The notes: a model not told the origin generated them from the sequence alone. Shown: positions 2,710-14,360, numbered from the stretch's first letter. The stretch: DNA of 64,000 nucleotides from Gammaproteobacteria bacterium (GCA_050186725.1 JBFWYG010000018.1:1284-65283); one strand, 5' to 3'. A program made the numbers and translations.

Positions 2710-2725
2710 AGCAAGTGGCGTGCCA
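2710..2725 (-). promoter_or_regulatory. Sigma-54 promoter for the BON gene
   Basis: TGGCACG-CCAC-TTGCT on the minus strand, a consensus -24/-12 site. Confidence 0.85.
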
Positions 2726-2748
2726 CAGCCCCGGCGTAGGTGTTCGTC

Positions 2749-2764
2749 TGGCACGCCCATTGCT
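2749..2764 (+). promoter_or_regulatory. Sigma-54 promoter for the Cys-rich gene/ku unit
   Basis: TGGCACG-CCCA-TTGCT, a consensus -24/-12 site. Confidence 0.85.
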
Positions 2765-2796
2765 GCCACGTCATGCCCAGCGCGAGGAGCGCCGAC

Positions 2797-3030
2797 ATGC
2801 CCAAGTGCGACACCTGTGGTAACAACTATGAACGGGCCATCGAGATTCGACGCGGCGCCCGCAGTCACTGGTTCGATTGCTTCGAGTGCGCGATCCACGC
2901 GCTCGCACCGCGTTGCGCCCACTGCCGCTGCGCGATCATCGGCCACGGCGTCGAGCACGGCGGACGCGACTATTGCTGTACACACTGTGCGCGGTGCGGC
3001 CAATCCGACCTGCCGCTGTTCGATCCCTGA
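2797..3030 (+). CDS. Small Cys/His-rich metallothionein-like or Zn-ribbon protein (77 aa)
   Basis: MPKCDTCGNNY...FDCFECAIHALAPRCAHCRCAIIGHGVE...YCCTHCA; 11 Cys and 6 His; SD GAGGAG. Confidence 0.8.
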   Translation: MPKCDTCGNNYERAIEIRRGARSHWFDCFECAIHALAPRCAHCRCAIIGHGVEHGGRDYCCTHCARCGQSDLPLFDP

Positions 3031-3096
3031 GCCAGTCGTCCGGCGGCGTAAGCCTTACATGCACGTGTAGCAATTGCGCGTTGGAGGGCAGTGCAC

Positions 3097-3984
3097 ATGG
3101 CGCGCAAGCGCAAGTCGCAAGCCGACGCCGCCAAGTCGGTTCGTGAACAGCCCGTTGGTGGTCGACCGTTGTGGAGCGGGCAGATCCGCCTGTCGCTGGT
3201 GTCGGTGCCGGTGCAGATTCATGCCGCGGTGAACAGCGGCGCGCGGCTGTCCTTCCACCAGGTGCACGCGCCGAGCGGCAAGCGCATCCGCTACGAGAAG
3301 ATCGCGCCTGGTATCGGGCCGGTGCCGGCGACGGAGATCCTCAAGGGTTACGAGATCAGCGATGGACAATATGTCCTGCTGGAACAGGCGGAGATCGACA
3401 GCGTCAAGTTGAGCGCCAAGCACATCTTCGAGCTGGTGCAGTTCGTCGAGCAGGGCGCGATCGACCTGCTGTACTTCGACCGTCCCTATTACGTGACGCC
3501 GCAGAACGAACTCGCCGAGGATGGCTATCGTGTGCTGCGCGACGCGCTGCGCGAGACGCGCAAGGTCGGCATCGGGCAGATAGTGATGCGCAGTCGCGAG
3601 TACATCGCGGCGCTCAAGCCCTGCGGTCGCGGGCTCCTGATGGAGACGCTGCGCTTCGATGACGAAGTTCGGCGGGCCGCGCCGCTGTTCGCGCCGGTCG
3701 ATGAAGGCGGCAGCGATGGCGAGCTGGTGGCTCTCGCGCGCGAACTGATCGAGCGCAAGTCGGCGCCCTTCGATCCCGCGACGTTCCGCGATCGCTACAG
3801 CGAGGCGCTGCGCGCGCTGGTCGAGGACAAGGTCAAGCACCGCCGCGCGGTGAGCGTCGACGAGGACGAGGCGCCGGACGGCGCGGAGGTCATCGACCTG
3901 GTGGCGGCGCTGCGGCGCAGCCTCGGCGGCAGCGGCAAGCCGACCCCCGCACGTCCCCGGCGCAAGGCGCGTCGCGCCCGCTAG
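3097..3984 (+). CDS. ku: Non-homologous end-joining protein Ku
   Basis: RPLWSGQIRLSLVSVPV, RIRYEK, ILKGYEI, YFDRPYYVTP, F.DRY, VIDLVAALRRSL and a basic tail. Confidence 0.95.
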   Translation: MARKRKSQADAAKSVREQPVGGRPLWSGQIRLSLVSVPVQIHAAVNSGARLSFHQVHAPSGKRIRYEKIAPGIGPVPATEILKGYEISDGQYVLLEQAEIDSVKLSAKHIFELVQFVEQGAIDLLYFDRPYYVTPQNELAEDGYRVLRDALRETRKVGIGQIVMRSREYIAALKPCGRGLLMETLRFDDEVRRAAPLFAPVDEGGSDGELVALARELIERKSAPFDPATFRDRYSEALRALVEDKVKHRRAVSVDEDEAPDGAEVIDLVAALRRSLGGSGKPTPARPRRKARRAR

Positions 3985-11822: not shown

Positions 11823-12581
11823 TCAGGGCGCCGCGCGCAAATCGATCATGTCCTGCAGCAGGTGCGCGATGTGGGCGTGACTCTCGATGAAGTACCGCGC
11901 CGCGGAGTCCGCGCCGGCGTCGCCCACCCGCACCGTCAGCCAATGGGACGGCGCGATTTCGAACGCGGCTTCGTCGTTCAGGTCGTCGCCGATGAAGACC
12001 ACCGCCTCGGCCTCGGTCCGCTGCGCGAGCGCGGTCAGCGCTTCCCCTTTGTGGGGCGCGTCGGCCACCACGACGTTGACCACGCACTTGCCGCCAAACG
12101 CCTTCAGTGGAGGCACGAAGTCGGCGAGCAGGCGGTCGATGAAGGCCAGCGCGCGCGCTCTCTCGGGCGCGCTGCGGTAATGCAGCGCGAGCGACAGGCG
12201 CTTGTCCTCCACGCGGACGCCGAGCGCACCGAGCGCGGCCTGGCGCGCGCGGAGAGTGGCGCGCAACCCGTCCAACTGGCGCGACTGGCGCGCCGGATCG
12301 AGATCGGCCCAGCCTTCGGCGCCATGGTTGCCGAGAATGTAGGTCGGCGAGAAGCCGAGGCGCCGACGCACATCGTCAACCGCGCGACCGGTGATCACCG
12401 CCACCGGGCACAAGGTCGCGAGCACCGCCAGGCGGCGCGCGATGCCGGTCGGCGTGTGCGCGCTCTCGGGGAGGGGCACGATGGGCGCGAGCGTGCCGTC
12501 GAAATCGAAGGCCAGCAGGCAGCGGCGCGCCATGGCTGTCCGCAGCGCCGCTTTGCCCGCGTCACTGAACATGTGCTTCAT
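11823..12581 (-). CDS. otsB: Trehalose-6-phosphate phosphatase
   Basis: HAD motifs FDFDGTLAPI, ITGR, GNHGAE, EDK...ALHYR, GGKCV, HKG, FIGDDLNDE. Confidence 0.93.
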   Translation of the reverse strand: MKHMFSDAGKAALRTAMARRCLLAFDFDGTLAPIVPLPESAHTPTGIARRLAVLATLCPVAVITGRAVDDVRRRLGFSPTYILGNHGAEGWADLDPARQSRQLDGLRATLRARQAALGALGVRVEDKRLSLALHYRSAPERARALAFIDRLLADFVPPLKAFGGKCVVNVVVADAPHKGEALTALAQRTEAEAVVFIGDDLNDEAAFEIAPSHWLTVRVGDAGADSAARYFIESHAHIAHLLQDMIDLRAAP

Positions 12582-12593
12582 CGCGAAGCGTCG

Positions 12594-12609
12594 AGCAAGA
12601 CTTGTGCCG
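12594..12609 (-). promoter_or_regulatory. Sigma-54 promoter for otsB
   Basis: CGGCACA-AGTC-TTGCT on the minus strand; predicted +1 is about 2 nt before the ATG. Confidence 0.8.
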
Positions 12610-12660
12610 GCGAGCCCGGCGCGGCGCCGCGTGCGGCCGATACCAAGGATTGCAAGTACG

Positions 12661-14088
12661 ATGACTGAGCCCGGCCCGCAACGCCTGGAGCGGGACAGCT
12701 TCGGCGAGATTGGCGTGCCGGCGGCGCGGCTGTGGGGCGCCGAGACCGAGCGCGCGCGCCGCCACTTCAGCGCCTGCGAGGAGCGCATGCCGCGCGAGCT
12801 GTTGCACGCGCTGGCGCTGATCAAGGCGGCGGCCGCGCGTGCCAACGCCGCGCTGGGCCTGCTCTCCGCGCACAAGGCCGAGGCCATCGCGCGCGCGGCC
12901 GAGGAGATCCTGGCTGGCACGCACGCGCAGGAATTCCCGCTGGCCCTGTGGCAGAGCGGTTCCGGCACCCAGACCCACATGAACGTCAACGAGGTGCTGG
13001 CGAACCGCGCATCGTGCCTGCTCGGTGGCGAGTGTGGCCGGGCGCGGCTGGTGGATCCCCACGACGACGTCAATCTCGGGCAATCGACCAACGACGTGAT
13101 GCCGAGCGCGATGCACATCGCCGCGACGCTCGGCGTGCGCGAGCTCATGCCCGTGCTCGAACGTTTGCGCGGAACCTTGGCCGCGCACGCCGCGGCCCAT
13201 GCGCGGCTGGTCAAGATCGGTCGCACCCATCTCCAGGATGCGACTCCACTGACCCTGGGCCAGGAGATCTCGGGCTGGTGCGCGCAGGTCGCGGACGCCG
13301 CGGCACGCATCGACGATGCGAGCGGCTCGGTGCGGGCCCTGTCGCTCGGCGGCACGGCGGTCGGCACCGGCCTCAATGCCCATCCGGCTTTCGCCGAAAT
13401 CGCGATCCGCGACCTCGCGCGCGTCACCGGCCAAGCGTTCGTGCCGAGCCGCAACCGTTACGCCGCGCAGGCCGCGCACGATGATCTGGTTGCGCTGCAC
13501 GGCACGCTGCGCACGCTCGCGGTGGCGCTCACCAAGGTCGCGAACGACGTGCGCTGGCTCGCCTCTGGCCCGCGCTGCGGACTTGGCGAACTCGCGCTGC
13601 CGGACAACGAACCGGGCAGCTCGATCATGCCCGGCAAGGTGAATCCGTCGCAGTGCGAGGCGCTGGTGATGGCCTGCTGCCAGGTGTGCGGCAACGACGC
13701 CGCGCTCGGCATGGCGGGCGCGGGCGGGCATTTCGAGCTGAACGCCTGCAAGCCGGTGATTGCGTTCAACGTGCTGTTCAGCCTGCGCCTGCTGACGCGC
13801 GTGGTGGGCGACTTCGAGCAGCACGCGGTGCGCGGCATGGCGCCGCGTACCGCGCGCATCGAGGAACTGCTGCAGCGCTCGCTCATGCTGGTCACCGCGC
13901 TCACGCCGCGGATCGGCTATGCGCGGGCCGCGGCCATCGCGCGCCACGCGCACGAGGCGGGCTTGAGCCTGCGCGAGGCGGCGCTCGAGAGCGGCGCGGT
14001 GAGCGCCGCCGAGTTCGATGCGTGGGTGCGGCCCGCCGCGATGGTCGGGCAGGACGAGACGTCGGACACACGCGGTGCGGGTGACTGA
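12661..14088 (+). CDS. fumC: Fumarate hydratase class II
   Basis: ERDSFG, GSGTQTHMNVNEV, QSTND, GRTHLQDATP, GSSIMPGKVNP signature, SLMLVTAL. Confidence 0.92.
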   Translation: MTEPGPQRLERDSFGEIGVPAARLWGAETERARRHFSACEERMPRELLHALALIKAAAARANAALGLLSAHKAEAIARAAEEILAGTHAQEFPLALWQSGSGTQTHMNVNEVLANRASCLLGGECGRARLVDPHDDVNLGQSTNDVMPSAMHIAATLGVRELMPVLERLRGTLAAHAAAHARLVKIGRTHLQDATPLTLGQEISGWCAQVADAAARIDDASGSVRALSLGGTAVGTGLNAHPAFAEIAIRDLARVTGQAFVPSRNRYAAQAAHDDLVALHGTLRTLAVALTKVANDVRWLASGPRCGLGELALPDNEPGSSIMPGKVNPSQCEALVMACCQVCGNDAALGMAGAGGHFELNACKPVIAFNVLFSLRLLTRVVGDFEQHAVRGMAPRTARIEELLQRSLMLVTALTPRIGYARAAAIARHAHEAGLSLREAALESGAVSAAEFDAWVRPAAMVGQDETSDTRGAGD

Positions 14089-14344
14089 CAGGCAGCGCGG
14101 CGCACGGTGCCTTAAGGTCGAGTCGGGACATTAGCCTGACCTTGCCATCCGCTGCGGAACCGTGACCCGGTCGACTGGGTCGTGCCACAGCCAGCCGATC
14201 GCATGTCTCGTTCCGCATCGTGCAGGGTGCCTCGGGTGTAAACGCTGGCGCGTGCCCCTGCAGCATTTACATGCGCAGGGCCTCGCTCGCTCCGCACTTG
14301 GTCGTCCGCGCCAGCGCTCGGCGAGCCTGCCGGGATGTGCGCCT

Positions 14345-14360
14345 CGGCATCGCCCTTGCA
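14345..14360 (+). promoter_or_regulatory. Sigma-54 promoter for the small secreted protein unit
   Basis: CGGCATC-GCCC-TTGCA. Confidence 0.75.

Follow-up and report, generated by a model that had tools for sequence, protein, structure and literature searches.

The 64,000-nt stretch of DNA analysed here (JBFWYG010000018.1:1284-65283 of assembly GCA_050186725.1, Gammaproteobacteria bacterium; hereafter the window) is part of contig C18 of a draft genome, G000, which comprises 5.21 Mb in 193 contigs with 68.7% GC. Positions 2,710 to 14,360 hold an island of genes of the general-stress type, which includes the gene for the Ku protein of non-homologous end joining (NHEJ) and carries predicted promoters of the -24/-12 class used by sigma-54. 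The island is best explained as part of an accessory sigma-54 regulon, the activator of which would be a bacterial enhancer-binding protein (bEBP) encoded on another contig, C91, and acting through 17-bp dyads; we give this explanation a probability of roughly 0.6. According to the proposed mechanism, RNA polymerase with sigma-54 would transcribe eight island units from -24/-12 promoters, seven of them strong (P1 to P5, P7, and P8) and one moderate (P6). The 365-aa bEBP would bind the dyads, mostly 50-90 bp upstream of the -24 element, and, once bound, would remodel the closed sigma-54 complex through ATP hydrolysis. Sigma-54 control of the island had been proposed in an original prediction made from the window alone, on the basis of GG-N10-GC sites located in front of most of its units.

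Sigma-54-type promoters in the island

The bare GG-N10-GC pattern is worthless as a criterion in G000; it occurs 1,299 times in the window, where 1,581 occurrences are expected from the genome density. The search was made with the extended motif GGCAY-N5-TTGC, and sites were scored with a position weight matrix (PWM) built from 37 intergenic seeds collected genome-wide. The extended motif is present 76 times in the 5.21-Mb genome and nine times in the window (0.93 expected), a number not reached in any of 100 dinucleotide-preserving shuffles (mean 2.04, maximum 7). In the 11.65-kb island there are seven exact matches against the 0.17 expected from genome density (Poisson P = 7e-10). Genome-wide, 41 of the 76 matches are intergenic, the non-coding share of the genome being 10.5% according to gene calls obtained with our own caller, which is based on GC content at third codon positions (GC3). 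Flanking positions that had not been selected are also consensus-like in the intergenic seeds: T precedes GG in 22 of the 37, G stands directly 3' of GGCAY in 25, and A or T directly 3' of TTGC in 28. The full TGGCAY opens four of the seven exact island sites, the extended sigma-54 consensus being TGGCAC-N5-TTGCW.

Out of the nine sites originally proposed, seven match this motif exactly, with PWM scores of 16.0-20.6. The site in front of the SRPBCC gene (P6) is weaker (9.6), and the one at 5799-5814, already described as weaker and located before a short-chain dehydrogenase/reductase (SDR) gene, scores -0.1, which is chance level, and has been rejected. All eight remaining sites are intergenic and close 5' of a gene, with the -12 GC about 12-80 nt from the nearest candidate start codon. 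Their orientation is little evidence, because six of the seven intergenic regions that hold them are divergent and either orientation would face a gene. The same motif is found ahead of flagellar genes, glnA, a pilin gene, and a PEP-CTERM-linked gene in G000 (genes named from sequence and context). Being located 5' of these classical sigma-54 targets as well, the motif is therefore the sigma-54 promoter of this organism. The genome holds one intact rpoN (a single Sigma54_DBD match of 239 bits, in a 528-aa open frame without stops) and 13 bEBP genes, detected as Sigma54_activat matches with E of 7e-49 or better.

Taken at the level of sequence, these data support the view that the island sites are true sigma-54-type promoters. 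Given how common the bare GG-N10-GC pattern is, chance matches in GC-rich DNA are an alternative to which we concede almost no probability: the enrichment, the consensus-like flanks, and the cross-genus conservation described below refute it for the seven strong sites, and it applies possibly to the SDR site and, to a lesser degree, to P6.

Conservation of the promoters in related genomes

Among 40 relatives, a close Ku (68% identity) is encoded only in G021, a genome from another genus of the same gammaproteobacterial family. The orthologues of the BON gene (23.1), the Cys-rich-ku unit (20.5), the topoisomerase IB gene (20.2), and the hemerythrin gene (14.9) are all preceded by sigma-54 sites in G021, which also keeps sites before Dps, DUF883, the 84-aa operon, the AI-2E gene, and the orthologue of C21_12281. 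When the BON/Cys-rich intergenic regions of G000 and G021 are compared, only the two -24/-12 elements have been kept; the spacer and the flanks have diverged. A third genus, represented by G440, holds the same back-to-back pair of promoters, with scores of 19.9 and 23.8 (the latter on the Cys-rich-ku side). In G440, the divergent pair leads to BON on one side and to the Cys-rich gene on the other, and the latter is followed by another sigma-54 site (19.5), a glycine-zipper homologue, a secreted protein, ku, and ligD, the string from the Cys-rich gene to ligD being encoded on one strand. In these three genera, the Cys-rich gene is the first one after the promoter that leads to ku (in G021 on L033, and in G440 at L174:11869-12102). 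Its 77-aa product matches no Pfam or NCBIfam family, and no atlas match at 0.9 or above was obtained. Conservation in orthologous promoters, one of the checks suggested together with the original prediction, is thus observed in both G021 and G440.

The description of the region as an NHEJ island is only partly right. It contains ku, and the bacterial NHEJ gene set is present in G000 as Ku in the window plus a three-domain LigD; ligD, however, lies outside the island on contig C21, with no sigma-54 site on its own strand. In G440, both ku and ligD follow sigma-54 promoters.

Among 15 other Ku loci, only that of G021 has sigma-54 sites. Sites with a score of at least 14 precede Dps homologues in two of 26 loci (G000 and G021; one more locus, in G005, reaches 10.1) and hemerythrin homologues in two of seven (again G000 and G021, the other five being without). 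Ku relatives in named genomes are limited to loci with 38-56% identity in Alphaproteobacteria and Actinobacteria, and no strong site is adjacent to them.

A candidate enhancer dyad

An unbiased k-mer test of the regions upstream of sigma-54 sites returned TTACACG as the top 7-mer, present in five of 38 windows and in 10 of 4,472 controls (P = 4e-8 before correction for 3,071 tests); the five windows are not fully independent, as the divergent topoisomerase IB and hemerythrin promoters share one copy. In alignments of orthologous promoters, this heptamer is included in a 17-bp dyad, CGYGYAR-N3-YTRCRCG. In the other genomes, the dyad (at least 15 of 18 weighted positions) appears in 24 of 66 sigma-54-upstream windows, mostly at -54 to -86 from the site. 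A PWM for this putative upstream activating sequence (UAS) was trained only on dyads from genomes other than G000 and then applied to G000. In this test, which was not fully blind, 11 of 58 sigma-54 windows exceeded the 99th percentile of 4,474 controls, with 0.6 expected (P = 1.5e-11). The dyad-bearing promoters are those of DUF1328, CsbD, the 84-aa protein, topoisomerase IB, hemerythrin, the BON protein of contig C21, the secreted protein of the island, a glycosyltransferase operon, Dps, a Ysc84-domain protein, and DUF883. All 11 belong to stress-type genes, and the flagellar, glnA, pilin, and PEP-CTERM promoters are all absent from this set.

Five positions in the first 20 kb of the window score at least 10 with the UAS PWM. 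The dyad between P4 and P5 is a candidate for an enhancer shared by both promoters, and that upstream of P8 is a candidate enhancer for this promoter. Two adjacent dyads between the Cys-rich gene and ku, about 320-340 bp upstream of P1 and downstream of P2, are likewise candidate enhancer sites and may act together on these two back-to-back promoters at a distance of about 300 bp. The fifth position (7237-7253; 11.1) lies inside the topoisomerase IB gene. Only 17 dyads with scores of at least 17 exist genome-wide, and four of them are in the island.

Other descriptions of the enhancer were tried and discarded. A first guess, TTACA-N4-8-TGTAR, was found at only two loci and does not generalise, and simple regular expressions were too narrow. 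The unweighted dyad consensus was swamped by GC-rich CGCGCAG...CTGCGCG matches in coding DNA, and the log-odds PWM was used instead. Our own expectation-maximisation motif finder yielded no discriminating motif.

A candidate activator encoded on contig C91

The original prediction assigned the island to an activator that is not encoded in the window. A candidate for this role, besides the candidate enhancer motif, is now available in the 365-aa bEBP of contig C91, and we infer that this protein could activate the promoters described above. It combines the AAA+ and helix-turn-helix (HTH) domains that define a bEBP. Only about 52 acidic residues are located N-terminal to the AAA+ domain, with no sensor domain, and no Response_reg match was found, so that the N-terminal receiver of NtrC-type bEBPs is missing. 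The protein scores below every equivalog cut-off among the 25 NCBIfam bEBP models listed, including that for PspF (TIGR02974; 269.9 bits, cut-off 443.55). Lacking a sensor, the protein is probably regulated through the amount present in the cell or through a partner protein.

The bEBP gene stands among four or five sigma-54 stress promoters. It is followed by genes for a NarL-type response regulator, a stand-alone receiver, a sigma-54-driven DUF883 protein, a small membrane protein, a HisKA_3 kinase, and Dps. The NarL-type regulator, the receiver, and the kinase would be the likely signal input, controlling either the level or the activity of the bEBP. G021 shows synteny with this arrangement, promoters included, and its bEBP is 84% identical. 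Orthologues with at least 64% identity over nearly their full length, and with E of 1e-110 or lower, are encoded in 11 of 81 species genomes of the family, corresponding to five of 18 genera. Seven further family genomes have sigma-54 sites on the flanks of the cassette, located before genes such as those for Dps, DUF883, BON, DUF1328, and an outer-membrane-type protein, and on the SDR side.

A sample of 400 genomes of the class contains 10 with bEBP matches at E of 1e-85 or lower, a count that includes three genomes flagged as unpublished (G063, G164, and G330), on which no other result depends; those other than G000 and G021 are 49-56% identical and mostly come from longer open frames. The 120 best clusters listed from a large protein collection are 53-100% identical to the C91 bEBP and mostly 354-402 aa long, and the few with names are labelled Gammaproteobacteria bacterium, Steroidobacteraceae bacterium, Herminiimonas, Oxalicibacterium, and Paucimonas. 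Short bEBPs like this one are therefore widespread and unnamed.

Some features of the cassette deserve separate mention. At C91:5877-6827 (L041), the receiver reads in frame into DUF883, with the sigma-54 site inside the open frame; in the G021 counterpart, receiver and DUF883 are separate blastx hits with the site between them. A gene fusion, the loss of a stop codon, or an error in the assembly might account for the read-through in G000. The idea of a split NtrC, in which the stand-alone receiver would be the detached receiver of the bEBP, found no support, as this domain is closer to the receiver of the NarL-type regulator (28% over 118 aa) than to one of the NtrC type. Between the bEBP gene and that for an EgtD-like histidine methyltransferase there is a gap of 880 bp without a called gene (C91:8597-9476), which holds a dyad (14.7, at 8823) and a weak sigma-54-like site on the (+) strand (8.3). 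In some other genomes, a divergent CsbD gene occupies this position. A search with Rfam found no family on contig C91.

Activator and sigma factor: weighing the explanations

A number of points weigh against the proposal that the C91 bEBP controls the island through the dyads. No dyad was detected within 160 bp of P1, P2, or P7, and the windows of P3 and P6 only reach the 97.5th and 96.5th percentiles; an activator common to the whole island is therefore only a possibility. The position of the ku-proximal dyad in G021 scores only 10.4, and G440 has a sigma-54 promoter where G000 has this dyad. Moreover, visual inspection of G000 had revealed the dyad consensus before the cross-genome test, and this consensus guided the choice of the training windows. 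The bEBP itself has a loop that reads GSFTGA, one substitution from the canonical GAFTGA, and G009 encodes a bEBP that is 67% identical but has no site before its hemerythrin or Dps homologues. The GC3-based caller set some gene starts wrongly and missed small genes, errors that include a wrong start for BON and the omission of the Cys-rich gene. Finally, the co-encoded NarL-type regulator could just as well be the protein that recognises the dyad. On this last point, paralogous bEBPs of G014 and G132 adjoin a dyad and a sigma-54 site with no NarL-type hit listed there, an arrangement that makes the bEBP the more likely of the two proteins to bind the dyad.

The dyad-less promoters P1, P2, and P7 and the marginal P3 and P6 would be accommodated if several activators, or another of the 13 bEBPs, were involved, and the C91 bEBP controlled only the dyad-bearing subset (among others topoisomerase IB, hemerythrin, the secreted protein, Dps, DUF883, and CsbD/DUF1328). 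The top-scoring sites of prkA and zwf, which are dyad-less too, point in the same direction. We nevertheless regard this alternative as rather unlikely. The dyad-less BON and Cys-rich-ku promoters were found only in genomes that carry the cassette (G000, G021, and G440); in G440, about 20 kb separate them from the cassette on one contig, and in G000, P1 and P2 have the two strong dyads at a distance of about 300 bp.

A different possibility is that the genes are mainly driven by RpoS- or sigma-70-type promoters and that the sigma-54 sites are poised or modulating, with the holoenzyme bound but rarely activated. G000 does encode RpoS (459.6 bits against a curated cut-off of 378.7), comparable genes are RpoS-dependent in other proteobacteria, and inactive sigma-54 binding sites are known in Escherichia coli. 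This explanation seems improbable to us in view of the preservation of the sites in three genera, at fixed short distances from the start codons and with diverged spacers, and of the upstream dyad at enhancer distance. In addition, a scan for sigma-70-consensus promoters in positions 1-16000 of the window found none, against a mean of 1.2 in shuffles, although this is a weak scan, RpoS promoters being degenerate.

As rpoS is present, the sigma-54 module therefore works beside RpoS and is no replacement for it. What holds of the original idea, that this lineage has wired its stress programme to RpoN, is an additional sigma-54 module; substitution for RpoS does not. No PhyR of the EcfG/PhyR system was recognised in G000, where the best match to the PhyR model NF006623 has 103 bits for a cut-off of 240. 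The sigma-54 module is accessory and patchy within the family (11 of 81 genomes).

Beyond regulation of the island by the C91 bEBP, a more ambitious proposal can be formulated, in which a self-contained second general stress response would run on sigma-54 in place of a factor of the sigma-70 family, with the sensor-less bEBP, the kinase/regulator cassette, the dyad, and some 20 genes. The targets would serve dormancy, desiccation, and DNA repair (Ku, and LigD in some genomes, Dps, topoisomerase IB, BON, CsbD, DUF883, and OtsB), and the module would have been gained and lost as a unit within one gammaproteobacterial family. Its distribution would be much wider, as suggested by homologous short bEBPs in metagenome-assembled genomes labelled as Oxalobacteraceae genera and Steroidobacteraceae. 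This proposal is tentative, and we consider the odds to be somewhat against it.

Genes of the island and the proposed wider regulon

The features discussed are compiled in Table 1. As stated in the original prediction, the sites precede genes of the general-stress type, and Pfam searches bear out the assignments made for BON, Ku, topoisomerase IB, hemerythrin, SRPBCC and the Zn-dependent dehydrogenase (Zn-ADH), the trehalose phosphatase, and the YgaP-like transmembrane protein. The glycine-zipper-like and secreted proteins match no family.

Table 1. Predicted sigma-54 promoters, candidate dyads, and associated genes. Positions refer to the window unless a contig is given; sigma-54 sites are scored with the sigma-54 PWM and dyads with the UAS PWM.
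Feature	Position	Strand	Sequence	Score or match	Remarks
DUF1003 gene	670-1386	-		Pfam DUF1003, 1.3e-26	3' of BON gene, same strand
BON gene, 376 aa	1500-2630	-		C-terminal BON, Pfam 6.6e-17	From translation
P1, sigma-54 promoter	2711-2724	-	TGGCACGCCACTTGC	Exact motif, 20.6	BON gene, probably DUF1003 too
P2, sigma-54 promoter	2750-2763	+	TGGCACGCCCATTGC	Exact motif, 20.6	Cys-rich gene and ku
Cys-rich gene, 77 aa	2798-3030	+			First gene after P2
Candidate dyad	3045-3061			17.1	Between Cys-rich gene and ku
Candidate dyad	3064-3080			18.0	Adjacent to the preceding dyad
ku	3097-3984	+		Pfam Ku, 6.8e-44	
Glycine-zipper-like protein gene, 159 aa	3981-4460	-			Downstream of P3
P3, sigma-54 promoter	4497-4510	-	TGGCATGCGGCTTGC	Exact motif, 19.1	Glycine-zipper-like gene
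Topoisomerase IB gene	7087-8136	-		Pfam Topoisom_I and Top1B_N_bact	
P4, sigma-54 promoter	8149-8162	-	TGGCATGCCGCTTGC	Exact motif, 19.3	Topoisomerase IB
Extra TTACACG heptamer	8184-8190			Unbiased k-mer test	Near the 8196-8212 dyad
Candidate dyad	8196-8212		CGCGTAGAAGCTACATG	18.5 (reached by 0.11% of control windows)	Between P4 and P5
P5, sigma-54 promoter	8253-8266	+	GGCATGGAGTTTGC	Exact motif, 16.6	Hemerythrin-domain gene
Hemerythrin-domain protein gene	8304-8909	+		Pfam	
P6, weaker sigma-54-like site	9998-10011	+	GGTACATGTCTTGC	9.6	SRPBCC and Zn-dependent dehydrogenase
SRPBCC gene	10065-10568	+		Pfam	
Zn-dependent dehydrogenase gene	10572-11816	+		Pfam	
Trehalose-phosphatase gene otsB	11823-12581	-		Pfam Trehalose_PPase, 4.1e-21	
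P7, sigma-54 promoter	12595-12608	-	GGCACAAGTCTTGC	Exact motif, 16.8	otsB
Candidate dyad	14257-14273		CCTGCAGCATTTACATG	18.0 (reached by 0.18% of controls)	Starts 86 bp 5' of the 22-nt P8 window
P8, sigma-54 promoter	14346-14359	+	GGCATCGCCCTTGC	Exact motif, 16.0	Secreted protein and YgaP-like genes
Secreted Gly-rich protein gene	14420-14785	+			First gene after P8
YgaP-like membrane protein gene	14830-15150	+		Pfam	3' of secreted-protein gene
Candidate activator bEBP, 365 aa	C91:7499-8596			Pfam Sigma54_activat 1.6e-64, AAA_lid_14, HTH_8 1.5e-13	
Sigma-54 sites	C91			19.7; 19.7; 20.1; 23.4	Dps; DUF883/ElaB-like; AI-2E transporter; 84-aa hydrophilic protein and CDP-alcohol transferase
Sigma-54 sites	C21			23.0; 16.4; 17.3; 20.3; 12.2	174-aa protein divergent from three-domain LigD; DUF3309; 294-aa protein and TM2 protein; GT4 glycosyltransferase operon; small (second) BON protein
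Weak sigma-54 sites	C103			5.3 (CsbD-like gene); 9.3	Flanked by CsbD-like and DUF1328-like genes

The BON and DUF1003 genes are likely to form one operon; the PWM detects no sigma-54 site in the gap between them, and their order is the same in G021. About 230 residues of GGQSYGGQ-type Gly/Gln/Tyr repeats precede the BON domain, as in a hydrophilin or low-complexity stress protein, and the G021 protein has the same repeat plus BON architecture. The GTG codon of the topoisomerase IB gene that aligns with the N-terminus of the G021 protein is only about 12 nt after the -12 GC of P4 (8136-8162), and the corresponding mRNA might be leaderless. The G021 gene has a 35-nt leader with AGGAG.

No sigma-54 site was detected with the PWM for the 363-aa kinase-like/receiver protein, the 4618 hybrid kinase, the YghA-like SDR plus DUF6496, or fumC, nor in the gap directly 5' of ku, and the best match for the CHRD gene is only 7.7. 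A terminator-like hairpin of 14 pairs followed by a T-run is located at 9808-9843 on the (-) strand, in the CHRD/SRPBCC intergenic region, and no called gene ends there on that strand. The part of the window from 42000 to 64000 has a GC content of 55-63%, compared with 65-72% upstream, and carries genes of the polysaccharide type, recognised from translations only: a Wzz-like chain-length protein (53568-54473), a DegT-like aminotransferase (55485-56717), and a GT2-like protein (56874-57815). Two further exact matches to the sigma-54 core are found there, at 53708-53721, inside the Wzz-like open reading frame, and at 54653-54666.

Beyond the window, sigma-54 sites precede stress-type genes on contigs C91 and C21, with weaker ones on C103 (Table 1), where the genes that we take to encode CsbD and DUF1328 were named from their sequence by recall. 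The site of the CsbD gene is marginal (5.3), but this gene has a strong dyad upstream. The sites of prkA (yeaG-like; 23.4, C118:6507-6528) and zwf (24.0, C4:82177-82198) are among the best of the genome and have no dyad upstream. Both genes probably belong to another activator, which we presume may be NtrC.

Relation to known systems

A full-text literature search returned no publication that places Ku/LigD, Dps, CsbD, BON, or trehalose genes under sigma-54 in the texts that it covered, supplementary tables, which could hold such predictions, being excluded. The same applies to the portions covered of a 2025 comparative paper on sigma-54 regulons (PMC12316311) and of a Xanthomonas transcriptome paper (PMC10782981). 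The sigma-54/bEBP mechanism is standard, but its physiological content here, the bEBP subfamily, and the operator appear to be undescribed. If the proposal is true, it would provide the first link found between sigma-54 and Ku/LigD, as well as a function for the short bEBPs, a subfamily that is widespread but has no name. With a predicted operator and the complete genome of a relative (G009) at hand, the idea can be tested directly.

General stress responses are the textbook case of sigma-factor replacement, exemplified by RpoS, SigB, and EcfG. These factors recruit the polymerase, and hence their promoters are leaky and graded. A sigma-54 version would follow a different logic, in which promoters are fully off until the ATPase fires, and this would suit functions that carry a high cost or are mutagenic, for instance NHEJ, topoisomerase IB, and dormancy proteins. 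The gene content itself is similar to that of the RpoS, SigB, and EcfG regulons, of which such stress genes are members elsewhere: Dps, an OsmY-like BON protein, CsbD, DUF883 (ElaB/YqjD), DUF1328, OtsB, Ku/LigD, and a YghA-like SDR. Contrary to those regulons, the promoters described here are of the -24/-12 class and require an ATPase activator.

Among sigma-54 systems, one resemblance in the architecture of the activator is with PspF of the E. coli phage shock response, a sensor-less bEBP that drives a sigma-54-dependent stress response. The C91 bEBP also consists of AAA+ and HTH domains only, with no N-terminal sensor, and since neither protein has a sensory domain, activity must be controlled in trans. 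However, the C91 bEBP is no PspF orthologue, as its bit score indicates, and no pspA-like gene was seen in the C91 cassette, which carries instead a NarL-type regulator, a receiver, and a kinase. PspF acts on the single psp operon, whereas the predicted targets here are general-stress and DNA-repair genes at several loci.

HrpR and HrpS from Pseudomonas syringae are also sensor-less bEBPs, the output of which depends mainly on how strongly they are expressed and on partner proteins. They share with the C91 bEBP the absence of a sensor, but they form a tandem pair that controls hrpL and type III secretion, in contrast to a single bEBP gene and stress genes in the system proposed here. A further parallel is offered by yeaG (prkA) of enterobacteria, a stationary-phase or stress gene that has an NtrC-dependent sigma-54 promoter and is part of the nitrogen regulon. 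The prkA gene of G000 likewise has a top-scoring sigma-54 site (23.4); unlike the nitrogen regulon, neither the island promoters nor the dyad show an association with promoters of the glnA type.

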